From: a virus
Taxonomy: Duplodnaviria > Heunggongvirae > Uroviricota > Caudoviricetes
Reading direction: 5' to 3' (one strand)
Virus record (IMG/VR): IMGVR_UViG_2690316062_000002
DNA length: 13,326 bases
Shown in pieces: positions 1 to 13,326 of this stretch. A model generated the notes under the pieces. The model made no database searches. It worked only from the letters and a program-made list of their open reading frames with translations, and was not told where the DNA came from. The first letter of the stretch is position 1. Each line of letters opens with the position of its first letter. The translations under genes and the position numbers were made by a program.

Positions 1-78
1 CACCTCTGACTGAGAGTTTACTCACTTAGCCGCGTGTCCACTATTGCTGTGTAAGATCAAATCTCATCGGAAGAGGGG

Positions 79-270
79 ATGACGACACAGCAGAAAAAAG
101 AAATGGCTGCATTGGTACAGAAGCAAATTGAAAGCCTCAGGGCTCAACTGGAGCAGTTGTTAAGGCAGCAGGCAGAGAAAAAGAATAAAGACGCGACAGT
201 TCAGCCTGATAAAAAAGAAGAGAAAAAAGACGATACAAATACCGCTGGCACCATTGATATTTACGTCTAA
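79..270 (+). CDS. hypothetical small protein, 63 aa, coiled-coil-like N-terminus and Lys/Glu-rich tail
   Basis: ATG at 79; frame closed upstream by stops at 7-9 and 52-54; AGAGGGG purine tract abuts the ATG (spacing suboptimal); followed by a hairpin plus T-tract at 285-308. No family recognised. Confidence 0.35.
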   Translation: MTTQQKKEMAALVQKQIESLRAQLEQLLRQQAEKKNKDATVQPDKKEEKKDDTNTAGTIDIYV

Positions 271-284
271 GTGACAGCCGTATT

Positions 285-308
285 GTGGCCCTCATCGGGC
301 CACTTTTC
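285..308 (+). terminator. Rho-independent terminator candidate
   Basis: GTGGCCC (285-291) pairs with GGGCCAC (297-303), 5-nt loop, followed by TTTTCG. Confidence 0.5.
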
Positions 309-706
309 GCCATCAGCCTTTTCTTTAAAGACATATTATCTTTGTATCATTTCTGATAGTTAACATTACAAGATATAAGTAATGGACGCACTCCCAATTA
401 GTCTATTTAAATCGCCACGAGTTTAACTGACAACCCATGATCAATTATGAATTGCAACTATTTCTGTAGTCACTTTTGTGGGGACAGTCCACAAAACTGC
501 CAACTTCCGCTTCTTGCTCTTAGCGGACATTAGCATAGGCTATTTACCATAACGCCTCATTACGCGCACCGCCCAGACTGACTCAGCGCGTTTCTGGCAT
601 ATCCCCGGTAAAACAAGTAACAAACCACCCGAAAATGAACACCAGAAACGCGACTTAAGAATCTACCCTATGAATGGATATGCACTCAACCGAATCGATC
701 TTGGTT

Positions 707-1639
707 TCAATCTTTTTTATCGGGATCAGGCTTCTTTTTAGGTAACTTCGGGGGCTTAACTTGCTGATGACTTTGCGTTCGGCGCGTAAGCCAGGGATGG
801 TCAGCTTTAGGTTTAACATAGTATTTTGAGCGTAAATCAATACGGGCATTATCCACTCGTTCATGGACACTCTTTTCATCATCCAGTGGTATAGGCTCCG
901 GGCCATCAACATACTTTTCCCAGCCCAGCGCTTTCCCGTCATACAGAACGTTAATTTCACCGTCAAAGTTCTCGCATACAGTAACAACCGAATGCCTAAG
1001 TCGATATCCCCGGCCCTCACTGCGTACCTGAAACGCACTGCTTTTGTACTGGAAAGTGAGATTTTTAGACAGAACGCGCTTCGCCTGTAGGCTGAAGATA
1101 TAACCCAGTTCCTCTTCAGAATGGTGCACATCAAGATGAGCATTATCAGTAGTACGAGGCGACGTAGCGAACCGGTTGTTATAGGCTTCAATAAAGGTCG
1201 GCAACCATGCATTTGCTGTTTCAATATCACTGATATTCTGAAGCCGCATTTCTTTGACCAGCCTGTCCTGTAGTGTCTGATTGGCGCGCTCTACCCGCCC
1301 TTTTGCCTGCGGGCTGTTGGCATGGATTGGCTCGATGCCCAGTGTCTTTATCGCACGAGTGAACTGGGTCAGCTCACCTTCCCGCTCTGGGTTATTTACC
1401 CTGAATATACTGTGTCTATCAGAGTAGAGAGCGAGCGGTACGCCATGATCATTAAGGTAACCCCGGAGGGTTTCCATGTAAGCCCGGGTTGTTTCAGCAG
1501 GCACAAAACGCAACGCCATCAACGCACTGGTGGCATCATCAATGAAAACGATCAGTGTACATCTGGGGCCTCGATTTTCAAACCAGTCATGAGGTGAGCC
1601 ATCAATCTGGATCAGTTCACCGTAAGATGGTCGTCGCAT
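707..1639 (-). CDS. transposase, DDE (rve-type) integrase catalytic core part (OrfB-like)
   Basis: Candidate catalytic residues in IQIDGS, LYSDRHS and GRVERAN with typical D-D-E order. The frame is open upstream to 1696 and overlaps the OrfA frame across a G6 run (C6 on the plus strand, 1687-1692); removing one G would fuse the two as ...MIEEGVWRERRRK... Confidence 0.7.
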   Translation of the reverse strand: MRRPSYGELIQIDGSPHDWFENRGPRCTLIVFIDDATSALMALRFVPAETTRAYMETLRGYLNDHGVPLALYSDRHSIFRVNNPEREGELTQFTRAIKTLGIEPIHANSPQAKGRVERANQTLQDRLVKEMRLQNISDIETANAWLPTFIEAYNNRFATSPRTTDNAHLDVHHSEEELGYIFSLQAKRVLSKNLTFQYKSSAFQVRSEGRGYRLRHSVVTVCENFDGEINVLYDGKALGWEKYVDGPEPIPLDDEKSVHERVDNARIDLRSKYYVKPKADHPWLTRRTQSHQQVKPPKLPKKKPDPDKKD

Positions 1640-1676
1640 GCGGCGTTGATATATACGGGCAATTTTACGACGGCGT

Positions 1677-2048
1677 TCACGCCATACCCCCCTCTTCTAT
1701 CATCCACTTTCTGAGAGTTTCAACGGATAAAGATAAACCGTGTATCTCGCGCAATTTTTCGCACGCAAACGTAGGTCCAAAATCAGCGTAACGGCCTTTG
1801 AGGAGTGAAATTACTGTTGCTCTGAATTCAGTAGAAAAGGAATTATTAGGACGCTTTCCACGTCGGTGGGAAACCAGACCAGAAGGCCCTTCATTTCTAT
1901 ACCGTTGCACCAGACGTTTAACCTGCCGAATAGAAATGCCAATGCGTGCCGCAGCTTGTTCCTGAGTAATATGTCGATTAATTGACTCCTGAATAATCTG
2001 AAGTCGGTGGAGTTCCTTATGACTCATCGTAACAGTTTCTTTGGTCAT
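1677..2048 (-). CDS. transposase, N-terminal helix-turn-helix part (OrfA-like), out of frame with the catalytic part
   Basis: 123-aa ORF with an HTH-like segment (AARIGISIRQVKRLVQRY); ATG at 2048-2046; purine-rich GGGGGA 7 nt upstream lies inside a hairpin arm (2057-2076). Confidence 0.7.
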   Translation of the reverse strand: MTKETVTMSHKELHRLQIIQESINRHITQEQAAARIGISIRQVKRLVQRYRNEGPSGLVSHRRGKRPNNSFSTEFRATVISLLKGRYADFGPTFACEKLREIHGLSLSVETLRKWMIEEGGMA

Positions 2049-2382
2049 GAAAAATCCCCCAGAGAATTGTCTGGGGACATTTTAGAATGGTTCAAAGGGG
2101 ACATTACAGCTTGGTGTTAACAATAGCCTGCTTCTCCTTGCCTTTCGGCACGTAAGAGGCTAACCTACATGTGTCTGGCATGAAATTGGCCTCAGATTAA
2201 TGTTAAGCGTCTTGCAGGACGCGTAATGTTAACTGGGGCTTTTCTCTACCTGCCGTTGGTGTTCGTGCCCGAGGCAGATAGCCTCAAGCACCCGCAGTCA
2301 TTCTACTTAACTAAGATTTCCCCGCAAACCGTTTTTGTCCAGCACAGTAAATATCCAACTAAACCAATGGAGTTCGCTGTAT

Positions 2383-2562
2383 TTACCGCCAGTATTCAAT
2401 GCACATGACCGCCATGAACACCCCTAAAAAAAGGGCATTTATATATCCAAATATTAATATCAAAACATCAACTTTTTCCATATACCTTGCTGTGAAGATG
2501 ATGGGCATACATGATGCGAACAACCAGAACGCAACAAACAAAAACTGCAATGCGTTTTTCAT
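2383..2562 (-). CDS. hypothetical small membrane protein, 59 aa, two predicted transmembrane helices
   Basis: ATG at 2562-2560 preceded by a perfect AGGAGG (2572-2567) with 4-nt spacer; translation MKNALQFLFVAFWLFASCMPIIFTARYMEKVDVLILIFGYINALFLGVFMAVMCIEYWR has two hydrophobic segments; sits in an AT-rich stretch. No family recognised. Confidence 0.35.
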   Translation of the reverse strand: MKNALQFLFVAFWLFASCMPIIFTARYMEKVDVLILIFGYINALFLGVFMAVMCIEYWR

Positions 2563-2816
2563 TATTCCTCCTACAATCAATGTGCAATTACATTTAAACA
2601 CACCTCAATTTGGCCGGACATATAAATATCTAAACCAGAAAAAATCACTTACATAGCGTTACAAACTCTTTAGTCTAAAGGTTCATCGTAAAACATTCCC
2701 CATACTTATCAGTCCGTTCCGCGCCAGGTAGCTCATTGCCTTATCTGGCAACCTGTAATCAGGTTTCCGCTTTTTCAGTTGGCTGGTCGTTTAACCGACA
2801 TAGTTAACCCATTAAT

Positions 2817-3104
2817 CTAGTTGCCGGATGTTGGTGGATTTTCGCGTTTTAGTTGTTCATAAAAGTGCACAGCTTTAACCAATTCTTCTGATGTAACCGG
2901 GACTGGTGAGGCAGTGAATAAGGCCTGAATTTGATAGTTCGGCCTGTCGTTACAATCCTCTTTTTTCGGTACATATTTCCAGTCACCAGACCACTACTTC
3001 CCCTGAAAGTCCGTAACGCCTTTTTTCACGTAGCGATATCGCCATGTCACTGGTTTTGCTTGCCCCGCCGTTTCATGCCCTTCCTGATAATTAATCTCGC
3101 TCAT
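2817..3104 (-). pseudogene. small phage-type ORF interrupted by an in-frame amber codon (TAG at 2996-2994); 36 codons before and 58 open codons after
   Basis: ATG at 3104-3102; MSEINYQEGHETAGQAKPVTWRYRYVKKGVTDFQGK, then TAG, then WSGDWKYVPKKEDCNDRPNYQIQALFTASPVPVTSEELVKAVHFYEQLKRENPPTSGN with no internal start; final stop TAG at 2819-2817. Confidence 0.3.
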
Positions 3105-3292
3105 TCATCGCCCCACTCATCACAATATGCTTCGACCGGAGTTTTTCCCGCTTCATAGTCATCACGCTAGGATTCGACATCAGCAGCACTTCCACCGCGT
3201 AACTCACCATAGTCCATTAATAGTTCATCCCGCTCTTCAAAACTGATGTTATATTTAGCTGAACAAAAATCAGCCACTTTGTTCTTCCTCAT
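3101..3292 (-). pseudogene. small ORF interrupted by an in-frame amber codon (TAG at 3169-3167); the read-through frame ends in a TGA that overlaps the ATG of the next ORF
   Basis: ATG at 3292-3290 (weak RBS); 41 codons, TAG, then 21 open codons RDDYEAGKTPVEAYCDEWGDE ending in TGA at 3103-3101, which forms an ATGA junction with the ATG at 3104. Confidence 0.2.
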
Positions 3293-3341
3293 CGTCTTTT
3301 ATTTCGTGGTATGAGTAATTGCAGTAGTTAAAGAAAATTTC

Positions 3342-3452
3342 TTATGCTCCGTCATGAATTTCATCAGGTGTTGCGTCATCGTCCACTTCGAATACATCCT
3401 CAAAATCTCCACCAGCTATTCCCGTTTCAATAATAATTTTGAACTTTCGCAT
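3342..3452 (-). CDS. hypothetical 36-aa acidic peptide
   Basis: ATG at 3452-3450, stop TAA at 3344-3342; translation MRKFKIIIETGIAGGDFEDVFEVDDDATPDEIHDGA; GGAGG lies 23 nt upstream, separated from the ATG by a GAAA-loop hairpin. Weak support. Confidence 0.15.
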   Translation of the reverse strand: MRKFKIIIETGIAGGDFEDVFEVDDDATPDEIHDGA

Positions 3453-3459
3453 TTCACTA

Positions 3460-3475
3460 CCGCCCTTTCGGGCGG
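3460..3475 (-). other. perfect 6-bp hairpin with GAAA (GNRA) tetraloop on the minus-strand transcript
   Basis: Minus strand reads GGAGG-CCGCCC-GAAA-GGGCGG-UAGUGAA-AUG; no U-tract follows, so it is not a canonical terminator. Confidence 0.4.
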
Positions 3476-3530
3476 CCTCCTGATGTTCTGAGGGTGCAGA
3501 AATCCATCCGGTTAAGGATTAAGTTTTATT

Positions 3531-3570
3531 TACAGAACTGAATTTAATTATTCAGATATACGTATCTGTA
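3531..3570. promoter_or_regulatory. cluster of nested inverted repeats, candidate operator/promoter region
   Basis: TACAGA (3531-3536)/TCTGTA (3565-3570); CTGAAT (3538-3543)/ATTCAG (3550-3555); CAGATA (3553-3558)/TATCTG (3563-3568). Confidence 0.3.
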
Positions 3571-3646
3571 ACCTTACGAATCTACTCACTGGATGCCTCT
3601 TTCATAAAAATAGTCCAGTGGGTTTTATCGTTTTTTCCCTGTTCGT

Positions 3647-3674
3647 TGACAGATAACAGGCTTTCTATCTGTCA
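3647..3674. repeat. 9-bp inverted repeat TGACAGATA / TATCTGTCA with 10-bp spacer
   Basis: Perfect 9-bp arms at 3647-3655 and 3666-3674; shares the CAGATA/TATCTG half-site with the palindrome at 3553-3568. Confidence 0.4.
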
Positions 3675-3714
3675 GTGCCAGAATCTGGCTTACCGGTATT
3701 TGCGTTTCATTCCA

Positions 3715-4071
3715 TTAAAAAATCAGAACGCCGTGCGGCCTCAACACCCGAAAAGCTTCTTTAAATCTCTGTCGCAAATCATCACGCCAGGCATCTTTAT
3801 TCAGCCGTCCATATTTCTTTCCCATCCAGGCGTTATCACCAACACGCTCAAGATGCGGAGGGTCTAATACAACCATCGAAAAAGATGCGTCTGCAAATGA
3901 TAATGCACGAAAATCTGCGATAATGTCAGGGCTGATAATCAAGCGTCTCCCATTGCGTAATGTGTATCCTTCTTTTCTGATATCGCTGAATATCGCCCGT
4001 TTGTCAGACTTATCGAACCAGAACATGCGGCTGCCACAGCACATATCAAGAATGGTTGCCGGTGCACTCAC
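3715..4071 (-). CDS. SAM-dependent N-methyltransferase-like protein (118 aa), possibly truncated
   Basis: GTG start at 4071-4069 overlapping the upstream TGA (GTGA junction); glycine-loop-like ILDMCCGS near the N-terminus and VLDPPH about 58 residues later, the order seen in amino-methyltransferases; 118 aa is short for a complete fold and the frame stays open for 30 codons past the TAA. Confidence 0.55.
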   Translation of the reverse strand: MSAPATILDMCCGSRMFWFDKSDKRAIFSDIRKEGYTLRNGRRLIISPDIIADFRALSFADASFSMVVLDPPHLERVGDNAWMGKKYGRLNKDAWRDDLRQRFKEAFRVLRPHGVLIF

Positions 4072-4490
4072 TGCGCCACGTCCTGAAAATTACCCTGATA
4101 GAAAGCCAGTATGCGCTGCATAACTTCGCTCTTCCGGCACTCGCGACAGATTATGTTTAGGCGACTGTCGTAGCGACGTATTTCTCCGTCAGGTGATGAC
4201 CAGATAAGGTCCGGATCAACCACAGCAGGTTTCTTCACCTTTGCCCTCGAGAGTTTTTTGCGGGCGTTTTGCCAGTCCTTACGCGCCTGTTCAGAGGGGA
4301 ATAACCCGTAGCCGGAGTTGTATACATCGCCACTGGCTACCAGCTCTCTGGCAAGAACGCTCATCAGATATCTAGTCGCACCTGTTTTAGCTTCCAGTTG
4401 CCGTAACGTCTCACGGCCGCTCTGGCGCACGAGTTCCACCACCTGCCATTTAATTTTTTCCCGCTCTTCTTGTGTAAAAACTTTTGCCAC
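4068..4490 (-). CDS. hypothetical protein (140 aa) with putative winged-helix DNA-binding segment, translationally coupled to the methyltransferase
   Basis: GTG start at 4490-4488 with strong AAGGGGG 5-6 nt upstream; segment RETLRQLEAKTGATRYLMSVLARELV looks HTH-like; stop overlaps the next start. Confidence 0.55.
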   Translation of the reverse strand: MAKVFTQEEREKIKWQVVELVRQSGRETLRQLEAKTGATRYLMSVLARELVASGDVYNSGYGLFPSEQARKDWQNARKKLSRAKVKKPAVVDPDLIWSSPDGEIRRYDSRLNIICRECRKSEVMQRILAFYQGNFQDVAQ

Positions 4491-4530
4491 CAGTCCCCCT
4501 TAAAATTACCTCATGACCTGAAATCAACAC

Positions 4531-5496
4531 TTATCCTCTGAAACCAGGCGGAATTTCTGTATCCGGTTCAGAAATATGATTAACACAACGCTGTACAGGT
4601 GAACGTCCCAGGCGGATGACCAGTTCGTCCCATTTTTCGCGGAGCTTTGACGGGCTCATGATGTTTTTTACCCAGAATGGATCTCGCTGAACCCGACCAA
4701 ACATTTCGCAAATTTGGCTGTGGCTTCTGCCATCCAGCATCCGCATTGTGCGCACGTCATTGGCCCAGGCAGTCCAGTTAGGCTCTTTTGGTCGCATGAT
4801 CTCGCCATCATCACTGGCTGCCTGTTCGTAGAGACCCACGATCCGCCCCCAGATCCACTGCGCACACGCCAAATCCTCCCTGCTACCCCACTGGCGTTTT
4901 TTCGCACTAAACACAACCGCGTCGGAGTTCCGGGTTAAAGAATCCTGTTCAGTCGTCTGCGGGTCCGGTTGCGAAGCTTCCGGACGAAAAGTGTTTTTAT
5001 TCTCTGTAGTAATCTCTGTTGTATTCTCTGTAAGATCATCAGGCCATTTTGACCCGATGACATTGGGTCGTTTTGAACTAATGGAGCGTTTCATTTTGAC
5101 CTCTTCCATCGTGTCATTTTGACCTGATGGAGCGGCGCATTTTGAACCGATGGATTCGCTCAATTTGCCACCATCTAAAAGCTCGCTCCCATAGTTGATC
5201 GTGTAGAAATTGGTCATATCGCGCTTTGATTTATTGAGCTTTTCACAACGCAAAAGCCCCAGCGTTTTCAGACTTGCAAACGCGCGCTTTAACGTTGACT
5301 CTGACCAGAATGGGAACTGTTCCAGCCATTGTTCCGTTGTGTTATAAATCCAGCGAACACCATCACATTCCATGCCGGAGTTGGTATCTCTCAACCAGTA
5401 GTGCAGTTGTTGCAAAACAATGGCTTCGTTTAAGCCAATTTTCATTGCCAGCTGCGTGTTTATAACCAGTGGGCGTTCAGCAAAAAGAAGGCTCAT
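4531..5496 (-). CDS. phage replication initiator (lambda O-like replisome organizer) carrying an internal iteron origin
   Basis: ATG at 5496-5494 preferred over the TTG at 5550; N-terminal NEAIVLQQLHYWL-type organizer motif; low-complexity linker encoded by the iteron region; conserved C-terminal domain. Confidence 0.75.
   Translation of the reverse strand: MSLLFAERPLVINTQLAMKIGLNEAIVLQQLHYWLRDTNSGMECDGVRWIYNTTEQWLEQFPFWSESTLKRAFASLKTLGLLRCEKLNKSKRDMTNFYTINYGSELLDGGKLSESIGSKCAAPSGQNDTMEEVKMKRSISSKRPNVIGSKWPDDLTENTTEITTENKNTFRPEASQPDPQTTEQDSLTRNSDAVVFSAKKRQWGSREDLACAQWIWGRIVGLYEQAASDDGEIMRPKEPNWTAWANDVRTMRMLDGRSHSQICEMFGRVQRDPFWVKNIMSPSKLREKWDELVIRLGRSPVQRCVNHISEPDTEIPPGFRG
4999..5034. repeat. 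three tandem 12-bp repeats (ATTCTCTGTAGT / AATCTCTGTTGT / ATTCTCTGTAAG) beside the iterons
   Basis: Tandem units at 4999-5010, 5011-5022 and 5023-5034 in an AT-rich stretch; plausible DNA-unwinding or accessory-factor element of the origin. Confidence 0.4.
5045..5159. repeat. five direct iterons (consensus CATTTTGAMCYGATGG), putative prophage replication origin
   Basis: Iteron starts at 5045, 5069, 5092, 5115 and 5138 (spacing 22-25 bp), inside the initiator gene as in lambda ori. Confidence 0.6.
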
Positions 5497-5998
5497 AATT
5501 CCATCCAGCTTTTTGTTGGTATTGCTGTCGATACGCAAGCTTGAAAGCAATTGCTTTTTCTATAAGTTCGTCAGTTTCACGATCCACTACGGCAGGATCA
5601 GCAAAAAGCAGTCCGGACTCCACCACATCGCCATATTCTTTGTTTAACCCGGCGATCATGCACGTGATGCTTTTTCCGTCAGTAATTTCACGATACAACC
5701 TGAAATCACTAATCCGGATAGCCTCCATAATCGCAGGCACTAGCGCCGTGAACTTTTCACGCTTATCCCTGGTGTCGATAGCCTTCCAGCGTTCGAATAT
5801 CTTCACTCGATTAACACCAAGCGCTCGCTGATCAACCGCGCCACCTTCATCTGTGACACGCTGAACATCGATGTTCGGGCGCTCTTTCAAAGCCCAGAAT
5901 GCTTCAGTGATTAATATCGTCGCCTGCTCCTGTGTCATTCCTGGTCGACATATCCAGGCATCCAGAGCCTCACGAGCCTGTTCAGGAGTGATTTTCAT
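5477..5998 (-). CDS. YdaT-like prophage protein (173 aa) in the cII position
   Basis: ATG at 5998-5996; lies between the Cro-like gene and the replication initiator, overlapping dicC by 17 nt and the initiator by 20 nt; family assignment is from recalled similarity to Rac-type YdaT, unverified. Confidence 0.6.
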   Translation of the reverse strand: MKITPEQAREALDAWICRPGMTQEQATILITEAFWALKERPNIDVQRVTDEGGAVDQRALGVNRVKIFERWKAIDTRDKREKFTALVPAIMEAIRISDFRLYREITDGKSITCMIAGLNKEYGDVVESGLLFADPAVVDRETDELIEKAIAFKLAYRQQYQQKAGWNYEPSFC

Positions 5999-6212
5999 TG
6001 TTCAACCACCCCGCCCGCTTCGTCTTACGATATTCATCATAAACTTTGGGATCATACTGAAGCTCCCCGCCAGATGCCTCCTGTAGACGCATCGCGCGAC
6101 CTTCGGGAACTAAATCCCCTTTCCAGCTATAAAGCGAAGCCAAACGAATACCTGCTGCTTGTGCAAGTTTTGTTTTTGAACCGAAATACAAAAGAGCGTC
6201 AGTTTTAAGCAT
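5982..6212 (-). CDS. dicC: DicC, Cro-like repressor of the division-inhibition operon
   Basis: 76 aa, MLKTDALLYFGSKTKLAQAAGIR... HTH; divergent from dicA; AAAGGTG RBS 6 nt upstream; length and sequence match my recollection of K-12 DicC. Confidence 0.8.
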   Translation of the reverse strand: MLKTDALLYFGSKTKLAQAAGIRLASLYSWKGDLVPEGRAMRLQEASGGELQYDPKVYDEYRKTKRAGWLNNENHS

Positions 6213-6295
6213 TTAAAACACCTTTATTGTTAGTCATAACTAACAAGATAGATGTTAACAAAAACATAGTCAATACGATTTAGCATTAGCTAACT
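6213..6295. promoter_or_regulatory. divergent dicC/dicA promoter-operator region
   Basis: Operator palindromes TGTTAGT-CATA-ACTAACA (6228-6245) and TTAGC-ATTA-GCTAA (6280-6293); central palindrome TGTTAACA (6253-6260); leftward promoter with -35 TTGACT (6273-6268), 17-bp spacer and -10 TATCTT (6250-6245) overlapped by the first operator. Confidence 0.6.
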
Positions 6296-6703
6296 ATGGA
6301 AACAAAAAATTTAACTATCGGCGAACGCATCAGGTATCGTCGGAAAAACCTCAAACACACCCAAAGGTCTCTTGCTAAAGCCCTGAAAATCTCCCATGTG
6401 TCTGTATCACAATGGGAACGGGGTGATAGTGAACCTACAGGGAAGAACCTTTTTGCCCTCAGCAAAGTATTGCAATGCTCACCAACATGGATTCTATTTG
6501 GCGATGAAGACAAGCAACCAACACCACCTGTTGAGAAGCCAGTTGCCTTATCCCCCAAAGAACTAGAGCTCCTTGAGCTGTTTAATGCACTGCCAGAATC
6601 AGAACAGGATACCCAGCTCGCCGAAATGCGAGCTCGAGTAAAAAACTTCAATAAACTCTTTGAAGAATTACTAAAAGCCCGTCAGCGGACAAATAAAAGA
6701 TAA
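6296..6703 (+). CDS. dicA: DicA, CI/C2-like HTH repressor
   Basis: 135 aa; N-terminal XRE-type HTH (RIRYRRKNLKHTQRSLAKALKISHVSVSQWERG); position and length match my recollection of K-12 DicA. Confidence 0.85.
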   Translation: METKNLTIGERIRYRRKNLKHTQRSLAKALKISHVSVSQWERGDSEPTGKNLFALSKVLQCSPTWILFGDEDKQPTPPVEKPVALSPKELELLELFNALPESEQDTQLAEMRARVKNFNKLFEELLKARQRTNKR

Positions 6704-6763
6704 CATCATCAATGAGTTATCTTTTACCACATCAATTATGTTAGCTATAGCATACAAAATCAC

Positions 6764-6792
6764 TTGACCGATATGTTAGTCATGGCTAATCT
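6764..6792 (+). promoter_or_regulatory. candidate dicB-operon promoter with embedded operator
   Basis: -35 TTGACC (6764-6769), 17-bp spacer, -10 TAATCT (6787-6792); a third copy of the operator motif, TTAGT-CATG-GCTAA (6776-6789), lies in the spacer and -10. Confidence 0.45.
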
Positions 6793-6869
6793 TGTTTGCA
6801 TCAACACACCGCACGGTGTTCTCAGCAAACAGTTCCGCTACCCCAGCGTTAAGGGGAAATGAGGTCCGC

Positions 6870-7025
6870 ATGGATACTATCGATCTTGGCAACAACGAAT
6901 CTCTGGTGTACGGCGTGTTTCCAAACCAGGACGGTACGTTCACCGCGATGACGTATACCAAAAGCAAAACGTTTAAAACCGAAAATGGTGCCCGTCGCTG
7001 GCTGGAAAGAAACTCAGGTGAGTGA
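6870..7025 (+). CDS. ydfA: YdfA-like small protein, 51 aa
   Basis: ATG at 6870 with GAGG 5 nt upstream; MDTIDLGNNESLVYGVFPNQDGTF...; the six-frame ORF from 6792 is an upstream extension without RBS; length matches recalled K-12 YdfA. Confidence 0.7.
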   Translation: MDTIDLGNNESLVYGVFPNQDGTFTAMTYTKSKTFKTENGARRWLERNSGE

Positions 7026-7026
7026 T

Positions 7027-7155
7027 ATGGATTTCGACACAATCATGGAAAAAGCTTACGAAGAATACTTCGAAGGTCTTGCCGACGGCGAAGAAGCTCT
7101 CAGCTTCAACGAATTTAAACAGGCGCTTTCCAGTTCGGCAAAATCTAACGGCTGA
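7027..7155 (+). CDS. ydfB: YdfB-like small protein, 42 aa
   Basis: ATG at 7027, 1 nt after the ydfA stop; MDFDTIMEKAYEEYFEGLADGEEALSFNEFKQALSSSAKSNG; below the 60-aa cutoff of the ORF track; length matches recalled K-12 YdfB. Confidence 0.6.
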   Translation: MDFDTIMEKAYEEYFEGLADGEEALSFNEFKQALSSSAKSNG

Positions 7156-7184
7156 TAAGCGAAACAGCACCGCGAGGAATCAGT

Positions 7185-7403
7185 ATGCAGAAACGAGAAC
7201 CCGTCATCATCGCGCCAGACTATACCGATGATGAACTTTATGAGTGGATGCGCCAGAAAATTAATGCAGCGCAGGATCTGAAATGGGCCAATGAAGCCAG
7301 GGCTAAGCAGGCTGAAAATCTGTCCGCTCTGGAGCAGGATATCACCAATCTGGAAAAAGCAGCGGCATTAAGCATTGCCAGAATGATTACATACCCGCGT
7401 TAA
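7185..7403 (+). CDS. ydfC: YdfC-like small protein, 72 aa
   Basis: ATG at 7185 with GAGG 7 nt upstream; coiled-coil-like sequence; length matches recalled K-12 YdfC. Confidence 0.7.
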   Translation: MQKREPVIIAPDYTDDELYEWMRQKINAAQDLKWANEARAKQAENLSALEQDITNLEKAAALSIARMITYPR

Positions 7404-7743
7404 TAGCTAACCAACGAAGCTAAGGTTGGTAATTAAGGAGTTCTCCACGGGTGAGGTGGAGTGCGTGCGCCGGACACGGGTGAGCATCCGGCACTGACAG
7501 TTTACTGAAAGGATATTTCCCTGAAAAGTCAGACCATAACGCGAAAGCGCACGGCGAGGTAGCTGGTTCATAGATAGCCTGTCGTTAAATTTTCGTCGAC
7601 CGTGCGCTTCCGGTTGTGGCAACCCGCGAAATGGTGCGGCGGTAAGTATGGCGGGGTTATTTCTTCCCCGTTGAGGACACCGGGTTGTCAGGTTGACCAT
7701 ACGCTTAAGTGACAACCCCGCTGCAACGCCCTCTGTTATCAAT

Positions 7744-7796
7744 TTTCTGGTGACGTTTGGCGGTATCAGTTTTACTCCGTGACTGCTCTGCCGCCC
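7744..7796 (+). ncRNA. dicF: DicF small regulatory RNA (53 nt)
   Basis: TTTCTGGTGACGTTTGGCGGTATCAGTTTTACTCCGTGACTGCTCTGCCGCCC matches the DicF sequence as I recall it; lies between ydfC and dicB as in the known operon; followed by a T5 tract. Confidence 0.7.
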
Positions 7797-7801
7797 TTTT
7801 T
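7759..7801 (+). terminator. DicF 3' stem plus U-tract (intrinsic terminator-like)
   Basis: GGCGG (7759-7763) pairs with CCGCC (7791-7795), followed by TTTTT (7797-7801). Confidence 0.5.
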
Positions 7802-7970
7802 AAAGTGAATTTTGTGATGTGGTGAATGCGGCTGAGCGCACGCGGAACAGTTAAAACCAAAAACAGTGTTATGGGTGGATTCTCTGTATCCGGCGTTAAT
7901 TGTTAACTGGTTAACGTCACCTGGAGGTACCAGGCACTGCATCACAAAATTCATTGTTGAGGACGCGATA

Positions 7971-8159
7971 ATGAAAACGTTATTACCAAACGTTAATACG
8001 TCTGAAGGTTGTTTTGAAATTGGTGTCACTATCAGTAACCCAGTATTTACTGAAGATGCCATTAACAAGAGAAAACAAGAACGGGAGCTATTAAATAAAA
8101 TATGCATTGTTTCAATGCTGGCTCGTTTACGTCTGATGCCAAAAGGATGTGCACAATGA
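7971..8159 (+). CDS. dicB: DicB, cell-division inhibitor (MinC-dependent), 62 aa
   Basis: ATG at 7971 with GAGGA 8 nt upstream; MKTLLPNVNTSEGCFEIGVTISNPVFTEDAINKRKQERELLNKICIVSMLARLRLMPKGCAQ; the listed ORF from 7866 is a GTG-started extension. Confidence 0.8.
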   Translation: MKTLLPNVNTSEGCFEIGVTISNPVFTEDAINKRKQERELLNKICIVSMLARLRLMPKGCAQ

Positions 8160-8347
8160 ATTCAGCATTTGTGCTTGTTCTGACAGTTTTTCTTGTTTCC
8201 GGAGAGCCAGTTGATATTGCAGTCAGTGTTCACAGGACAATGCAGGAGTGTATGACTGCAGCAACCGAACAGAAAATTCCCGGTAACTGTTACCCGGTCG
8301 ATAAAGTTATTCACCAGGATAATATCGAAATCCCGGCAGGTCTTTAA
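8156..8347 (+). CDS. ydfD: YdfD-like small membrane (lysis-type) protein, 63 aa
   Basis: ATG at 8156 overlaps the dicB stop (ATGA junction); N-terminal hydrophobic segment AFVLVLTVFLVSG. Confidence 0.75.
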   Translation: MNSAFVLVLTVFLVSGEPVDIAVSVHRTMQECMTAATEQKIPGNCYPVDKVIHQDNIEIPAGL

Positions 8348-8439
8348 AACAGTTCCGTAATAAATATCCGGTTTCATTCTTATATGCCAGCAATGGCAGG
8401 GATTTGTTCATCCTTAAATCTGTCATGAGGTTAAAACAA

Positions 8440-10911
8440 ATGAGTAAAGTCTTTATTTGCGCCGCTATTCCTGACGAACTGGCAACAAGGGAAGAAGGCG
8501 CTGTGGCTGTAGCCACAGCCATTGAAGCTGGCGACGAACGCCGTGCTCGAGCAAAATTTCACTGGCAATTCCTGGAACATTATCCGGCTGCTCAGGACTG
8601 CGCTTATAAATTTATTGTCTGCGAGGATAAACCTGGCATACCCCGCCCTGCCCTCGATTCATGGGATGCTGAATATATGCAGGAAAACCGCTGGGATGAG
8701 GTGTCTGCTTCTTTTGTCCCGGTTGAGACTGAATCCGATCCGATGAACGTCACTTTTGACAAGCTGGCCCCTGAAGTACAGAACGCTGTCATGGTTAAGT
8801 TCGACACATGTGAAAACATCACCGTTGATATGGTTATTAGCGCACAGGAATTGTTGCAGGAAGACATGGCAACATTCGACGGACATATCGTTGAAGCGTT
8901 GATGAAAATGCCAGAAGTTAACGCCATGTATCCGGAGCTTAAGTTGCACGCCATTGGGTGGGTTAAGCATAAATGTATTCCTGGTGCTAAATGGCCCGAA
9001 ATTCAGGCAGAGATGCGCATCTGGAAAAAACGTCGCGAAGGTGAACGCAAGGAAACCGGAAAATACACGTCTGTTGTTGATCTCGCCCGCGCCAGAGCCA
9101 ATCAACAGTACACTGAAAATTCAACAGGAAAAATCAGCCCGGTCATTGCTGCCATTCATCGCGAATACAAGCAGACATGGAAAACACTGGATGACGAACT
9201 GGCCTACGCTCTCTGGCCTGGTGATGTGGATGCCGGAAACATTGACGGCAGCATCCATCGCCGGGCAAAAAATGAAGTTATCGACAACGACCGCGAAGAC
9301 TGGAAGCGTATCTCGGCATCAATGCGCAAACAGCCTGATGCCCTTCGCTACGACCGCCAAACTATTTTTGGCCTTGTCCGTGAGCGTCCGATCGACATTC
9401 ACAAAGATCCCGTAGCACTGAACAAATATATCTGCGAATACCTGACGACAAAGGGCGTGTTTGAGAATGAAGAAACAGACCTGGGCACTGTTGATGTTCT
9501 CCAGTCATCAGAAACACAAACTGATGCAGTGGAAACTGAGGTATCTGATATCCCAAAAAATGAAACCGCGCCGGAAGCTGAACCATCTGTAGAGCGTGAG
9601 GGGCCGTTCTATTTCCTCTTCGCAGATAAGGACGGAGAAAAATACGGTCGCGCAAACAAACTTTCTGGTCTGGATAAGGCACTGGCTGCTGGCGCCACTG
9701 AAATCACAAAAGAAGAATATTTTGCCCGAAAAAATGGCACATACACGGGCTTACCGCAAAATGTAGATACCGCTGAAGATTCAGAACAACCAGAGCCGAT
9801 AAAAGTTACCGCTGACGAAGTAAACAAAATTATGCAGGCAGCCAATATCATCCAGCCTGACGCCGATAAGTTGCTTGCTGCATCACGTGGTGAATTTGTT
9901 GAAGGGATTAGTGACCCGAATGATCCGAAATGGGTTAAGGGGATCCAGACCCGCGATTCTGTGAACCAGAACCAGCATGAATCGGAACGGAACTACCAAA
10001 AAGCGGAACAAAACAGCCCAAATGCGTTACAAAACGAGCCAGAAACGAAACAGCCTGAATCAGTGGCGCAACAGGAAGTGGAAAAAGTCTGCACCGCCTG
10101 CGGTCAGACCGGCGGCGGCAACTGCCCTGATTGTGGCGCGGTAATGGGCGACGCAACATACCAGGAAACATTCGATGAAGAGTATCAGGTTGAAGTTCAG
10201 GAAGATGATCCGGAGGAAATGGAAGGCGCTGAACATCCACACAAGGAGAACACTGGCGGCAATCAGCATCACGATAGCGATAATGAAACTGGCGAGACGG
10301 CAGATCACTCAATTAAGGTGAACAGTCATCAAGAAATCACATCCACCAGCAGGACGTGTGACCATCTAATGATCGACCTTGAAACCATGGGAAAAAATCC
10401 TGATGCCCCGATCATCTCAATAGGTGCAATATTTTTCGATCCGCAAACCGGAGATATGGGACCGGAATTTAGTAAGACTATCGATCTGGAAACTGCTGGC
10501 GGAGTCATTGATCGGGACACCATTAAATGGTGGCTTAAGCAATCACGCGAAGCGCAATCTGCCATTATGACCGATGAAATCCCGTTAGATGATGCACTGT
10601 TACAATTGCGGGAATTTATCGACGAAAACTCCGGTGAATTTTTTGTTCAGGTCTGGGGAAATGGAGCCAACTTCGACAACACGATTTTGCGCCGTTCATA
10701 CGAACGGCAGGGGATCCCCTGCCCGTGGCGTTACTACAACGATCGCGATGTACGCACAATCGTTGAGCTGGGGAAAGCCATAGACTTCGATGCCAGAACG
10801 GCTATTCCATTCGAAGGTGAGCGCCATAATGCACTTGATGACGCCCGTTACCAGGCAAAATACGTTTCAGTTATCTGGCAAAAACTGATCCCGAGTCAGG
10901 CTGATTCTTAA
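8440..10911 (+). CDS. large prophage exonuclease (823 aa): N-terminal domain of unknown fold, acidic linkers, C4 zinc ribbon, C-terminal DEDDh-type 3'-5' exonuclease domain
   Basis: ATG at 8440 with GAGG 9 nt upstream (the track ORF starts at an upstream TTG); C-terminal motifs DLETMG, NFDN and HNALDDARY; CTACGQTGGGNCPDCG (C-x2-C-x7-C-x2-C) near nt 10088-10137; corresponds to the gene I recall as the IS2-truncated ydfE in K-12. Confidence 0.8.
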   Translation: MSKVFICAAIPDELATREEGAVAVATAIEAGDERRARAKFHWQFLEHYPAAQDCAYKFIVCEDKPGIPRPALDSWDAEYMQENRWDEVSASFVPVETESDPMNVTFDKLAPEVQNAVMVKFDTCENITVDMVISAQELLQEDMATFDGHIVEALMKMPEVNAMYPELKLHAIGWVKHKCIPGAKWPEIQAEMRIWKKRREGERKETGKYTSVVDLARARANQQYTENSTGKISPVIAAIHREYKQTWKTLDDELAYALWPGDVDAGNIDGSIHRRAKNEVIDNDREDWKRISASMRKQPDALRYDRQTIFGLVRERPIDIHKDPVALNKYICEYLTTKGVFENEETDLGTVDVLQSSETQTDAVETEVSDIPKNETAPEAEPSVEREGPFYFLFADKDGEKYGRANKLSGLDKALAAGATEITKEEYFARKNGTYTGLPQNVDTAEDSEQPEPIKVTADEVNKIMQAANIIQPDADKLLAASRGEFVEGISDPNDPKWVKGIQTRDSVNQNQHESERNYQKAEQNSPNALQNEPETKQPESVAQQEVEKVCTACGQTGGGNCPDCGAVMGDATYQETFDEEYQVEVQEDDPEEMEGAEHPHKENTGGNQHHDSDNETGETADHSIKVNSHQEITSTSRTCDHLMIDLETMGKNPDAPIISIGAIFFDPQTGDMGPEFSKTIDLETAGGVIDRDTIKWWLKQSREAQSAIMTDEIPLDDALLQLREFIDENSGEFFVQVWGNGANFDNTILRRSYERQGIPCPWRYYNDRDVRTIVELGKAIDFDARTAIPFEGERHNALDDARYQAKYVSVIWQKLIPSQADS

Positions 10912-10983
10912 TGTTCAACTGTCGCCGGTTGTGACTGGTATTCTGCAACCGGCGCTCGTCTGATGTAAGAGATAAAGAAATCG

Positions 10984-11235
10984 ATGAGCGAAGTAATCAT
11001 GATTGTCTCTCCCGGCAAATGGGTATCCGAAGAGCAGTTAATTGCGCTGAAAGGAATAAAAAAAGGTACGTTAAAAAAGGCCCGGGAAAAATCGTTTATG
11101 GAAGGAAGGGAATATAAGCATGTCGCTCATGACGGTATGCCATGGGATAACAGTCCATGCTTTTACAACCTGGAAGAAATTGATCGCTGGATTGAGCGCC
11201 AGGCATCAGCAAGACCAAGACGTCATCTTACTTGA
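10984..11235 (+). CDS. excisionase-like protein (Xis), 83 aa
   Basis: Small basic protein immediately upstream of the integrase; the start is ambiguous (ATG 10984 or 10999), neither with a strong RBS. Confidence 0.55.
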   Translation: MSEVIMIVSPGKWVSEEQLIALKGIKKGTLKKAREKSFMEGREYKHVAHDGMPWDNSPCFYNLEEIDRWIERQASARPRRHLT

Positions 11236-11269
11236 CTAAAAGCCACACTAACTAATGAGAGAAGTTGAA

Positions 11270-12550
11270 ATGAAATATCCGACAGGCGTGGAAAACCATG
11301 GAGGGAAATTACGTATCTGGTTTGTTTATAAAGGCGTAAGAGTCAGGGAAAACCTGGGGGTTCCTGACACAGCAAAAAACAGGCGCGTTGCAGGTGAGCT
11401 ACGCGCCTCTGTTTGTTACGCAATAAAAACTGGTGTTTTCGACTATGCAAAACAGTTTCCCTCCTCACGCAATCTGGAAAAATTTGGTGAGACTCGACAA
11501 GATTTAACCATAAAAAAACTGGCTGAAAAATTTCTGGCACTGAAAGAAACTGAAGTCGCAAAAACATCACTCAACACATACCGTGCCGTCATCAAAAATA
11601 TCCTGAGCATAATCGGTGAAAAAAATCTTGCCTCATCGATTAATAAAGAAAAATTACTGGAGGTTCGTAAAGAGCTACTGACTGGATACCAGATCCCCAA
11701 AAGTAACTATATTGTTACACAACCAGGGAGATCGGCTGTAACTGTAAATAATTACATGACAAATCTTAACGCCGTGTTCCAGTTTGGTGTTGATAACGGT
11801 TACCTGGCAGATAACCCGTTTAAGGGGATCTCGCCATTAAAGGAATCAAGAACCATTCCGGATCCTCTTTCGCGGGAGGAATTCATCCGTCTTATCGATG
11901 CGTGCAGAAATCAGCAAGCCAAAAATTTATGGTGTGTTTCTGTTTATACTGGCGTTCGCCCTGGTGAGCTGTGTGCACTTGGATGGGAGGACATAGATCT
12001 GAAAAATGGAACAATGATGATCAGGAGAAATTTAGCAAAAGACCGTTTCACGGTACCAAAAACACAGGCGGGAACCAATCGGGTCATTCATCTTATTAAG
12101 CCAGCAATCGACGCTCTCCGGAGTCAGATGACATTAACGAGACTGAGCAAAGAGCATATCATTGATGTTCACCTCAGAGAGTATGGCAGAACAGAAAAAC
12201 ATAAATGCACCTTTGTTTTTCAACCTGAAGTGTCAGCGAGAGTAAAAAATTATGGTGACCATTTTACCGTTGACTCAATAAGGCAGATGTGGGACGCAGC
12301 GATAAAACGTGCCGGACTCCGCCATCGAAAATCATATCAGTCGAGACATACTTATGCCTGCTGGTCGCTGACAGCTGGTGCTAATCCGGCATTTATAGCA
12401 AACCAGATGGGCCATGCAGATGCGCAAATGGTATTTCAGGTATACGGAAAATGGATGTCTGAAAACAATAATGCACAGGTAGCTTTGTTAAATACACAGT
12501 TAAGCGAGTTTGCCCCAACCATGCCCCATAACGAAGCAATGAAAAATTAA
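11270..12550 (+). CDS. intQ: phage tyrosine integrase (lambda-type), about 426 aa
   Basis: C-terminal catalytic signature (R in TGVRPGE, HxxR in HTYACW, Y in VFQVYGKW); ATG 11270 preferred over 11255; symbol by synteny with the Qin locus. Confidence 0.85.
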   Translation: MKYPTGVENHGGKLRIWFVYKGVRVRENLGVPDTAKNRRVAGELRASVCYAIKTGVFDYAKQFPSSRNLEKFGETRQDLTIKKLAEKFLALKETEVAKTSLNTYRAVIKNILSIIGEKNLASSINKEKLLEVRKELLTGYQIPKSNYIVTQPGRSAVTVNNYMTNLNAVFQFGVDNGYLADNPFKGISPLKESRTIPDPLSREEFIRLIDACRNQQAKNLWCVSVYTGVRPGELCALGWEDIDLKNGTMMIRRNLAKDRFTVPKTQAGTNRVIHLIKPAIDALRSQMTLTRLSKEHIIDVHLREYGRTEKHKCTFVFQPEVSARVKNYGDHFTVDSIRQMWDAAIKRAGLRHRKSYQSRHTYACWSLTAGANPAFIANQMGHADAQMVFQVYGKWMSENNNAQVALLNTQLSEFAPTMPHNEAMKN

Positions 12551-12737
12551 TTTAATATTTGTCAAATAGTTGACACGTATGACTCTTGAAATCCATAAAT
12601 TCAAGCGCAGTGCCCAGCCATCCCGATACTGCTGCTTTCACCAAATCCTTAGTGCTTCTTTCGTGTTTTTCTATTGTCATAATGGTTATCTCTAAAAAAG
12701 AGGTAAGATGCGTACTACTTACTCGCCGTTATTGGTA

Positions 12738-13326
12738 TTATTCAGAAAAAGTGAGTAAGACTTTGCAGCAATGTTTTTGATCCTGTTCAAATAAACTAAT
12801 GGCATCAGCAACATGCTGGAAATCAAACGTATGGGTAATTAATTTTTCTGGTTTAATTAACCCTTTACTTAACCAGTCGATAACGACCGGGAATTTATTT
12901 GCATTTAAGCGTGAAGAGAAAATAGAGAGTTCTTTTCCGGTAATTCCTTGCTGAATCACTTCAGACGGTTCACTGGAGAAACCCATCAATACAATACGTG
13001 CCGCTGGAGAAGCCAGCGTTACGGCCTCTTTCAGGATAGAAGGATGACAAGCCGCATCAATAATTAATGTCGGCTTGATGCCTTTTTCAGTGAAAATCTC
13101 GCCAAGCGGTGTCTGGCTGTTATTAATCGCCCAGTCAGCCCCGCTCTCTTTCGCTTTTTCCAGTCGTTCATCAATGCGATCGGCAACAATCACATTTTTA
13201 ACGTTATAGACGCCTTTTAATACCTGAACGATCGTCAGGCCGATTGGACCGGCACCATAAACCAGAACGGGGTGATGCTGCCAACTTACTGATTTAGTGT
13301 ATGATGGTGTTTTTGAGGTGCTCCAG
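12738..13326 (-). CDS. rspB: Zn-dependent medium-chain dehydrogenase, C-terminal part (N-terminus beyond the window edge)
   Basis: Frame open to the window edge on the minus strand; GAGPIG Rossmann motif encoded near 13250; the rspB symbol comes from recalled K-12 synteny (intQ next to rspB), not from sequence identity. Confidence 0.7.
   Translation of the reverse strand, partial: WSTSKTPSYTKSVSWQHHPVLVYGAGPIGLTIVQVLKGVYNVKNVIVADRIDERLEKAKESGADWAINNSQTPLGEIFTEKGIKPTLIIDAACHPSILKEAVTLASPAARIVLMGFSSEPSEVIQQGITGKELSIFSSRLNANKFPVVIDWLSKGLIKPEKLITHTFDFQHVADAISLFEQDQKHCCKVLLTFSE

Follow-up and report, generated by a model that had tools for sequence, protein, structure and literature searches.

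Four adjacent, probably decayed genes in a Qin-type prophage of Escherichia coli

The decay of cryptic ("grounded") lambdoid prophages of Escherichia coli, such as Qin, Rac, and DLP12, has been reviewed (PMC6379469). The locus that we describe here resembles these elements in three ways: its chromosomal site and gene set are those of Qin (dicA/dicC-type immunity genes, ydfA-D, relBE, hokD, rem, ydfU, and pinQ); nonsense mutations, small indels, short-repeat deletions, and IS insertions are mixed in it as they are in those elements; and its accessory genes are decaying while some other genes stay intact. We see no difference in kind. Bobay et al., in a 2014 study that is cited in that review, reportedly described pseudogene decay in cryptic prophages. 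The Qin variant considered here includes a replication-side module, which comprises an O-like gene, a DUF977 gene, a methyltransferase gene, a DUF7167 gene (gene A), and two genes that we call B and C. To our knowledge, Qin of E. coli K-12 does not contain this module.

Many in-frame stop codons in bacterial genes have been argued to be transient and to be read through (Belinky et al. 2021; PMC7918605). The stops at this locus are similar in that TAA or TAG occurs in frame within a recognizable coding sequence and in that the downstream frame is kept in genes A and B. However, they are limited to one near-clonal lineage, neighboring genes contain frameshifts and deletions, and there is no clear purifying selection downstream of the stops. 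Another relevant system is nonsense polarity in operons: classically, a premature stop leads to Rho-dependent termination in the untranslated mRNA that follows it. As in such operons, the genes at this locus lie close together on one strand and their stop and start codons overlap, although here we infer polarity from the sequence.

The Qin-type prophage and its relatives

Gene content and closest matches identify the window, by which we mean the whole stretch of DNA that was analyzed (13,326 nucleotides), as a Qin-type lambdoid prophage from E. coli. The window's own genes include integrase, excisionase, exonuclease, ydfD-A, dicA/dicC-type, cII-like, O-like, and DUF977 genes. Over positions 1-5720, the window matches E. 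coli strain 81 at 99.97% identity. In strain 81, the element is at the Qin locus: it adjoins rspA/ynfA and contains relBE, hokD, rem, ydfU, cspB/F/I, and pinQ (PGAP annotation). Positions 1987-12603 are 99.1% identical to PhiR42_1 of ECOR13, a full-length Qin-like prophage in which the stops are identical. We base the assignment to Qin on how PGAP annotates the 99.9%-identical region in strain 81 and on the annotation of PhiR42_1; both the gene set (dicA/dicC, ydfA-D, relBE, hokD, rem, ydfU, and pinQ) and the chromosomal site (the rspAB/ynfA side) agree with it. A literature search on PhiR42 found nothing. Strain 81 was rejected as a stand-in for positions 5721-8046, where it contains an IS66 element; there, the window retains the immunity region, like ECOR13. 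The decayed haplotype described below occurs in the full-length prophage of ECOR13 as well as in the degraded prophage of strain 81.

Lesions in the four genes

The original prediction was that four consecutive frames on the minus strand each end at a stop codon that is followed by an open run in the same frame, and a recount bore this out. The features are as follows.

3582-4071, minus strand: probable pseudogene of a SAM-dependent methyltransferase (about 157 aa in the intact family), with its frame-corrected end at TAG 3584-3582
3715-3717, minus strand: nonsense TAA at methyltransferase codon 119, which is AAA (Lys) in intact homologs
3637-3639, minus strand: one extra G in a run of G (+1 insertion; GGG versus GG), which shifts the frame of the last ~12 methyltransferase codons
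3270-3452, minus strand: gene A, probable DUF7167 pseudogene, 60 aa when intact
3342-3344, minus strand: nonsense TAA at gene A codon 37, which is AAA (Lys) in relatives
3101-3277, minus strand: gene B, probable pseudogene, 58 aa in its intact form, without a Pfam family
3167-3169, minus strand: nonsense TAG at gene B codon 37, which is TGG (Trp) in relatives
2683-3104, minus strand: gene C, probable pseudogene, 171 aa in its intact form, without a Pfam family, natural stop TGA 2685-2683
2994-2996, minus strand: first nonsense TAG of gene C, at codon 37, which is CCG, CAG, ATG, CTG, or TGG in intact alleles
2830-2840, minus strand: junction of a 90-nt in-frame deletion between direct repeats AATCC(A/G)CCAG, with ~30 codons of gene C gone
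2817-2819, minus strand: second nonsense TAG of gene C, which is CAG (Gln) in intact alleles
2785-2786, minus strand: junction of a 4-nt deletion (CGACTGGTCAG to CGAC----CAG), which puts the last ~34 codons of gene C out of frame
977-2048: IS fragment, ~600 nt downstream

The details of the runs needed some correction. The methyltransferase does end at a TAA (3717-3715), but this is followed by 29 open codons instead of 30, and the TAA (3344-3342) of the 36-aa ORF in gene A (3452-3342) is followed by 23 open codons instead of 22, up to a TGA at 3272-3270. The other two counts were right. In gene B, TAG 3169-3167 is followed by 21 open codons up to TGA 3103-3101, which is the TGA of the ATGA overlap with the start of gene C; in gene C (36-aa ORF at 3104-2994), TAG 2996-2994 is followed by 58 open codons, which are closed by the second nonsense codon (TAG 2819-2817). 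The 41-codon ORF that was reported for gene B has the correct stop (TAG 3169-3167), but its ATG at 3292 is lineage specific and lies upstream of the homologous start at 3277. The joint probability of such run lengths is about 1e-3 given the window's own six-frame run-length distribution and about 1e-4 given shuffles of the region, so the rough chance estimate of 0.002 that accompanied the prediction was close to the recomputed values (1e-3 to 1e-4).

The ORF of the methyltransferase begins at GTG 4071, and PGAP places the start at ATG 4026. When the intact 157-aa homolog from L008 was used as a tblastn query (88% identity), residues 1-146 matched in one frame and residues 145-157 matched in another. 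The insertion site reads CAGGGAAAAAACGATAAAACC in the window versus CAGGAAAAAACGATAAAACC in L008, and the extra G creates the TAA that closes the open run after the nonsense codon. That nonsense codon costs the protein its last 38 of 157 residues. Codon 119 is TAA in 22 of 22 members of the window's lineage and AAA in both intact comparators. For the repaired methyltransferase, tblastn of phage records gave a continuous match over at least 80% in 244 of 253 records. In the identical sequence of strain 81, PGAP labels this gene as "frameshifted; internal stop."

An intact copy of gene A (640R1) matches Pfam DUF7167 from end to end (E = 7.9e-15), and the 60-position profile extends across codon 37, the site of the stop. 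All 14 of the phage tblastn matches to the read-through product of gene A were in a single piece with at least 93% coverage; 13 of the 14 included residues 1-60. Stop codons in genes A, B, and C were counted in an alignment of 127 loci (MAFFT, fast setting). At the stop in gene A, 100 of these loci have AAA and 23 have TAA, which is found only in the lineage that is at least 99% identical to the window. Gene A does not contain a frameshift, its frame is open past the stop to the natural end, and PGAP labels it as "DUF7167 family protein, internal stop."

Gene B shares 8 nt with the end of gene A and 4 nt (ATGA) with the start of gene C. At its stop, 101 of the 127 loci have TGG and 23 have TAG, and one lineage member has TAA in place of TAG. 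TAG also occurs at this codon in 606R7, but the neighboring bases differ. As in gene A, there is no frameshift, and the frame past the stop is open to the natural end. However, the start codon (3277-3275) is GTG in the window versus ATG in 102 of 104 outgroup loci, and gene B has 13 lineage-private codon changes, one of which replaces the invariant Trp16 with Arg.

The 90-nt deletion, second TAG, and 4-nt deletion of gene C were identified from a DNA alignment with four intact 171-codon alleles. The first stop costs 135 of the 171 residues, and the shifted tail (SQLKKRKPDYRLPDKAMSYLARNGLISMGNVLR, followed by a stop) is visible in another frame. At exactly these coordinates, PGAP reports a "hypothetical protein, frameshifted; internal stop." The first stop is TAG in 48 of the 127 loci and a sense codon in 78. 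This TAG is common to the window's lineage and to a 640R1-like sister lineage, in which gene C is also frameshifted, and hence it predates the stops in genes A and B. Decay is still ongoing within the window's lineage, with a 1-nt deletion (6 loci) and a +2 insertion (1 locus) at or beside the A run of gene C. Pfam contains no family for gene B, gene C, or the O-like protein, and NCBIfam contains no family for gene A, B, or C.

The original prediction also stated that no frameshifts were visible, which was mistaken, given the +1 insertion in the methyltransferase and, in gene C, the 4-nt deletion along with the 90-nt deletion and the second nonsense codon. The statement that the large neighboring genes are intact is true of the O-like, DUF977, exonuclease, and integrase ORFs, but there is an IS fragment at 977-2048. 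In each of genes A, B, and C, the first premature stop is at codon 37. We considered whether tandem paralogy among gene A, gene B, and the start of gene C might explain this, but by eye the proteins are not alike, and the stops have no flanking motif in common. We treat the shared position as a coincidence, though we have no explanation for it.

Gene decay and the alternatives

The original prediction proposed a tBLASTn comparison of the read-through products; in our searches, the homologs are continuous across each stop, and none of them ends naturally there. The four genes have intact, full-length homologs that continue across the lesions, and in gene A a lesion truncates a conserved domain. 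Independent disabling lesions are present in the methyltransferase, gene B, and gene C, in addition to the indels within the lineage. The combination of TAA, TAG, and TAG in genes A, B, and C is found only in sequences that are 99.0-100% identical to the window, and the lesions in the methyltransferase, gene A, and gene B are confined to one lineage with at least 99% identity. This lineage is common: 377 of 5,426 complete E. coli genomes (~7%) contain a match to at least 80% of the query; among the matches listed, nine have full coverage, and each of those is at least 98.7% identical. PGAP already calls three of the four genes pseudogenes (the methyltransferase, DUF7167, and C) in a genome that is identical to the window over these genes, and at least for gene C, it does so in three other genomes of the lineage.

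Overall, the four neighboring genes, which make up the distal end of the early-right (replication-side) block of a Qin-type prophage, are very probably pseudogenes that arose by ordinary decay. Each derives from a full-length gene that remains intact in related prophages. Point mutations converted sense codons to stops (AAA to TAA in the methyltransferase and DUF7167, TGG to TAG in gene B, and, in gene C, TAG in place of a sense codon at the first site and of CAG at the second), and the same genes acquired further disabling lesions (the +1 insertion, the 4-nt deletion, the 90-nt deletion, and the loss of an ATG start). The long open run after each stop is what is left of the former coding sequence, which can still be recognized. 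Of the two readings offered by the original prediction, nonsense-only pseudogenization and suppression, the first is supported as to pseudogenization but wrong as to "nonsense-only," since two of the genes are also frameshifted or partly deleted and the start codon of a third is mutated.

Why would the lesions be in consecutive genes? Accessory genes of a resident prophage are probably under weak selection. Furthermore, the genes are packed so closely that stop and start codons overlap (ATGGCTGA and ATGA), and a first premature stop should therefore lower the expression of the genes downstream, by nonsense polarity and by the loss of translational coupling. This loss of expression would relax selection on the downstream genes, which may be why the lesions cluster. 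Gene C probably decayed first, because its first stop is common to the sister lineage. This gives a likely order of decay for one Qin module and may be a small natural example of lesions piling up in coupled genes. More broadly, simple decay of genes in a resident prophage can account for a striking pattern of stops with long open frames behind them, and a reading of one sequence by itself can overlook the frameshifts that accompany the stops; the main value of the result is correct annotation.

Substitution patterns are informative about selection, but they have low power here. We rejected dN/dS against the outgroup consensus as a test for relaxed selection, as that distance is mostly old functional divergence, and instead relied on comparisons to the nearest alleles, lineage-private codons, and variation within the lineage. 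Against the nearest intact alleles, pN/pS is 0.28, as compared to 0.11-0.12 among intact alleles, although much of this distance predates the lesions. Genes A, B, and C together have 15 nonsynonymous, 2 nonsense, and 4 synonymous lineage-private codon changes, at codons that are otherwise common to ~75-100% of 104 relatives. Within the lineage, 12 of 23 SNPs are nonsynonymous and 11 are synonymous, while the neutral expectation is ~16 to 7 given the observed transition bias (P = 0.06). Given 23 SNPs, weak residual constraint may thus persist, and the pN/pS is raised but well below 1.

We also considered whether inactivation was selected: the intact genes might be costly or toxic when their expression leaks from the prophage, and the knockouts would then have swept as one haplotype. 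This would fit with damage that affects four consecutive genes but leaves the O-like, DUF977, exonuclease, and integrase genes open, and with the frequency of the decayed haplotype (the 377 complete genomes), which is found in both full-length and degraded prophages. Also, 2 of the ~24 private nucleotide changes in genes A and B are nonsense, where ~1 would be expected. However, an excess of this size does not reach significance (Poisson P ~ 0.26 of at least 2 given 1 expected), and intact alleles are in the majority in other E. coli prophages (100-101 of the 127 loci), which argues against general toxicity. Polarity and neutral decay would account for the clustering of the lesions without selection, and we consider selected inactivation to be unlikely.

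It seems quite improbable that the genes are expressed by stop-codon suppression or programmed read-through, with the stops acting to tune down expression or as switches conditional on a suppressor host. The frames of genes A and B are intact past the stop to the natural end; all 22 of the lineage members keep the stops over ~1% divergence, with one change from TAG to TAA and no reversion; and the 12:11 ratio within the lineage is slightly under the neutral expectation. The argument of Belinky et al. (2021; PMC7918605) for read-through of many in-frame stops in bacterial genes would also favor suppression. However, the stops in the methyltransferase, gene A, and gene B are missing from all divergent homologs, and the TAG in gene C extends to just one sister lineage. 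Having both TAA and TAG would demand an ochre-type suppressor, and ARAGORN found no tRNA gene within the window. The +4 contexts of the four stops (TAA-T, TAA-G, TAG-C, and TAG-T) do not share a leaky context, and UAAU and UAAG are strong terminators in E. coli. Suppression could not repair the frameshifted methyltransferase or gene C, with its second stop and its 4-nt and 90-nt deletions; a complete protein would be restored for genes A and B only, and gene B additionally lacks its ATG and an invariant Trp. Thus, the suggestion of suppression-dependent expression is not supported: three of the stops are limited to one lineage, two of the genes are not restorable, and the window has no tRNA. 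A phage genome with a reassigned stop codon was rejected as well, as there are two types of stops and the large ORFs (835, 431, and 339 aa) run uninterrupted under the standard code; the standard code of the host, E. coli, also counts against it.

In principle, genes A and B could still give full-length products at trace levels via near-cognate read-through. It is very doubtful, though, that their stops are retained "dimmer" alleles, with trace read-through and weak purifying selection, or that the 36-codon stubs of genes A, B, and C might be selected. Functional low-level read-through, if it occurred, would be a natural case for the debated claim that many bacterial in-frame stops are read through.

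Finally, a sequencing or assembly artifact, or a chance run of open codons, can practically be dismissed: the same lesions are present in 22 independent assemblies (from IMG/VR and GenBank), the lineage is represented by 139 E. coli records with at least 99% identity, the open runs have a joint probability of just 1e-3 to 1e-4, and they align codon for codon to intact homologs.

Premature stops and other lesions in four adjacent genes

We translated the minus strand of 2500-4100 in three frames. All four premature stops lie where the original prediction placed them; two of its counts of the open codons that follow were off by one, and the rest were correct. In gene order, the stops are as follows.

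3717-3715, minus strand: methyltransferase stop, TAA, then 29 open codons
3344-3342, minus strand: stop in gene A (the DUF7167 gene), TAA, then 23 open codons
3169-3167, minus strand: gene B stop, TAG, then 21 open codons to TGA 3103-3101, which overlaps the next start as ATGA
2996-2994, minus strand: gene C stop, TAG, then 58 open codons to a second TAG at 2819-2817

The joint chance of such open runs is about 1e-3 given the window's own six-frame run lengths, or about 1e-4 given shuffles, so the pattern is real and not noise.

As the original prediction had proposed, we asked if homologues are continuous across the stops. We took 120 IMG/VR loci that exactly match a 31-nt anchor where B meets C and aligned them with phage and genome loci, for a total of 127 sequences. 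The codon at stop A is AAA in 100 sequences and TAA in 23; at stop B, it is TGG in 101 and TAG in 23; and at stop C, it is a sense codon in 78 (CCG, CAG, GCA, ATG, CTG, TGG, or CGA) and TAG in 48. The combination TAA/TAG/TAG is restricted to sequences that are 99.0-100% identical to the window. When intact, gene A encodes 60 amino acids and matches Pfam DUF7167 over the whole profile (E = 7.9e-15), gene B encodes 58 amino acids, and gene C encodes 171 amino acids in many loci and 119 in others. The methyltransferase is 88% identical to an intact homologue of 157 amino acids, which has lysine (AAA) at the stop position. Using tblastn, the repaired methyltransferase was found in 253 phage records, spanning many host genera, and 244 of these align without a break to at least 80% of the protein, including both lesion sites. 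The read-through DUF7167 protein was found in 14 phage records, all of which match it as a single segment over at least 93% of its length (13 cover residues 1-60). None of the homologues compared ends naturally at these stop positions. Thus, the stops arose by nonsense mutation in genes that were once full length.

Phage 606R7, a prophage that is only about 87-90% identical, also has TAG at the same tryptophan codon of gene B (window 3169-3167). Because the flanking bases differ from the window's, the codon apparently either mutated independently from TGG to TAG or arrived in a small recombined patch.

The original prediction saw no frameshifts and offered nonsense-only decay as one of its two readings. 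Neither description fits: the locus also has indels and an altered start for gene B. The methyltransferase alignment switches frame near residue 145 due to one extra G (GGG instead of GG, 3639-3637). The extra G is common to all 22 members of the lineage (sequences at least 99% identical to the window, with the same lesions) that cover the site, and the TAA that closes the methyltransferase's open run results from this +1 frameshift. Compared to four intact 171-codon alleles, gene C has these lesions.

Codon 37, minus strand: TAG
Junction at about 2840-2830, minus strand: 90-nt in-frame deletion between direct repeats AATCC(A/G)CCAG
2819-2817, minus strand: second nonsense codon, CAG to TAG
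2786/2785, minus strand: 4-nt deletion

Past the 4-nt deletion, the conserved C-terminus of gene C (...SQLKK...NGLIS...VLR*) resumes in another frame and continues to TGA 2685-2683. Of 104 relatives, 102 start gene B with ATG, whereas the window has GTG; the ATG at 3292, which had been taken as the start of ORF B, is a lineage-specific Glu-to-Asp change within gene A.

With the homologous starts (3452, 3277, and 3104), codon 37 is the site of the premature stop in each of A, B, and C. This leaves three consecutive stubs of 36 amino acids, whose stops are separated by 175 and 173 nt. A different codon was mutated in each gene, and no flanking motif common to the three stops was apparent by eye. 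The naive chance of this is about 1e-4, which is a post hoc figure; we treat the shared position as a coincidence, and it is the remaining oddity.

Age of the lesions and selection

Every lesion is common to all 22 lineage members, yet about 30 sites in 1.39 kb vary among them, so the lesions predate the lineage's diversification. The first TAG of gene C is also present in a sister lineage (640R1-like, 90-93% identical), and we infer that it is older than the stops in A and B. The sister lineage carries the 90-nt deletion in gene C too, and in the one such genome that we fetched, PGAP flags gene C as "frameshifted; internal stop." Decay is ongoing within the lineage: at or beside the A run in gene C, there is a 1-nt deletion in six loci and a +2 insertion in one, and stop B has changed from TAG to TAA in one locus. 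A 981-nt query was matched over at least 80% of its length in 377 of 5,426 complete E. coli genomes; in a spread sample, the nine full-coverage matches were all at least 98.7% identical.

In the sister lineage (640R1 2382-2639 and about 16 IMG/VR loci, corresponding to 3026-2945 of the window), the poly-A run in gene C is A8 (A7 in some loci) instead of A6. The +2 shift skips the TAG and opens an out-of-frame ORF of 85 codons, which has been annotated as a protein. At 14 codons beyond the TAG, CGA AAA AAG sets the classic A_AAA_AAG slippery heptamer in phase in the shifted frame, where a -1 slip would restore the original frame. This is probably a coincidence.

Across A, B, and codons 1-95 of C, the codon changes private to the lineage are nonsynonymous in 15 cases, nonsense in 2, and synonymous in 4, and several alter codons that are identical in 100-102 of 104 relatives (such as Trp16 to Arg in gene B). 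pN/pS is 0.28 relative to the nearest intact alleles, versus 0.11-0.12 among intact alleles. SNPs within the lineage are 12 nonsynonymous to 11 synonymous, where about 16:7 is expected under neutrality given the observed 20:3 transition bias (P = 0.06). These counts have low power and point only tentatively toward relaxed selection. A and B show no clear excess of nonsense changes: of about 24 private nucleotide changes in these genes, 2 are nonsense, and about 1 is expected.

Explanations for the row of stops

Overall, the locus is a case of ordinary pseudogene decay within a Qin-type prophage, already annotated as such in public genome records. In E. coli strain 81, which is identical to the window over these genes, PGAP labels the methyltransferase and gene C (3104-2683) as "frameshifted; internal stop" and the DUF7167 gene as "internal stop." In three other lineage genomes that we fetched, gene C is flagged likewise in all three and the DUF7167 gene in two; the methyltransferase stub of 118 amino acids is annotated as an ordinary protein in two. 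Gene B carries no annotation in these genomes.

A premature stop in an upstream gene of an operon is expected to lower downstream expression, via Rho-dependent polarity and loss of translational coupling. We infer that decay proceeded by this route: the four are accessory genes in a resident prophage, and their stop and start codons overlap in a tightly packed block, so a premature stop upstream would reduce expression of the genes downstream, selection on them would relax, and lesions would build up in consecutive genes. A possible but unlikely alternative is that inactivation was selected because the genes are costly; against it, most loci in other E. coli prophages carry intact alleles. Expression by stop-codon suppression, the other reading originally offered, is very improbable. 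Read-through could in principle give full-length protein from A and B alone, whereas the methyltransferase and gene C would stay broken even with suppression. Both TAA and TAG occur among the stops, and their +4 contexts (TAA-T, TAA-G, TAG-C, and TAG-T) have nothing in common. Divergent homologues do not conserve the stops, and ARAGORN found no tRNA genes in the window. Belinky et al. (PMC7918605) argue that read-through events of this kind are common but for the most part transient and deleterious.

The prophage and neighboring features

By Megablast, the region belongs to E. coli lambdoid prophages. Window 1-5720 and 8047-13326 are 99.9% identical to strain 81 (NZ_CP088131.1), and 1987-12603 is 99.1% identical to "Escherichia phage PhiR42_1" of ECOR13. 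The strain 81 element is the Qin cryptic prophage: it adjoins ynfA/rspA and contains ydfD, relBE, hokD, rem, ydfU, ydfT, cspB/F/I, essD, rrrQ, and pinQ, along with several IS elements and truncated dicB, nohA, and tail-fiber genes. Qin is highly variable and mutation prone, according to reviews of "grounded" prophages (PMC6379469). The ECOR13 copy, a prophage of 48.7 kb, is full length and has a complete set of lambda-like head and tail genes. Like PhiR42_1, the window retains a dicA/dicC-type immunity region and ydfA-C-like genes (5721-8046), whereas an IS66 element replaces this segment in strain 81; thus, the window is from a different strain and is less degraded there.

Features around the four genes are as follows.

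Minus strand, in order: Cro/DicC-like, cII-like, O-like (5550-4531), DUF977/LygF (4490-4068), methyltransferase, A, B, C
2399-2656, plus strand (opposite): conserved 85-aa ORF just downstream of gene C
977-2048: IS fragment, beyond the plus-strand ORF

The 85-aa ORF is annotated in PhiR42_1 and 640R1 as "hornerin," which is probably a mis-annotation. A 310-codon open frame (707-1639, minus strand) fuses a transposase fragment of the ISEsa1 family (IS1202-like, 1639-977) in frame with the short ydfW ORF (856-707); PGAP splits it into a truncated transposase pseudogene and a separate YdfW protein.

The leader of gene A (3481-3450) contains a strong hairpin with a GNRA loop, GCCGCCC-GAAA-GGGCGGU (3476-3459, minus strand; centroid -15.5 kcal/mol), between AGGAGG (3481-3476) and the ATG (3452). 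The linear spacing of 23 nt would be reduced by the hairpin, an arrangement that recalls known hairpins that bring a Shine-Dalgarno sequence near the start codon. Its sequence is nearly unchanged in four aligned phages (one stem base differs, in 606R7), and the roughly 100 nt upstream of gene A has short stand-alone matches beside unrelated genes in many E. coli genomes.
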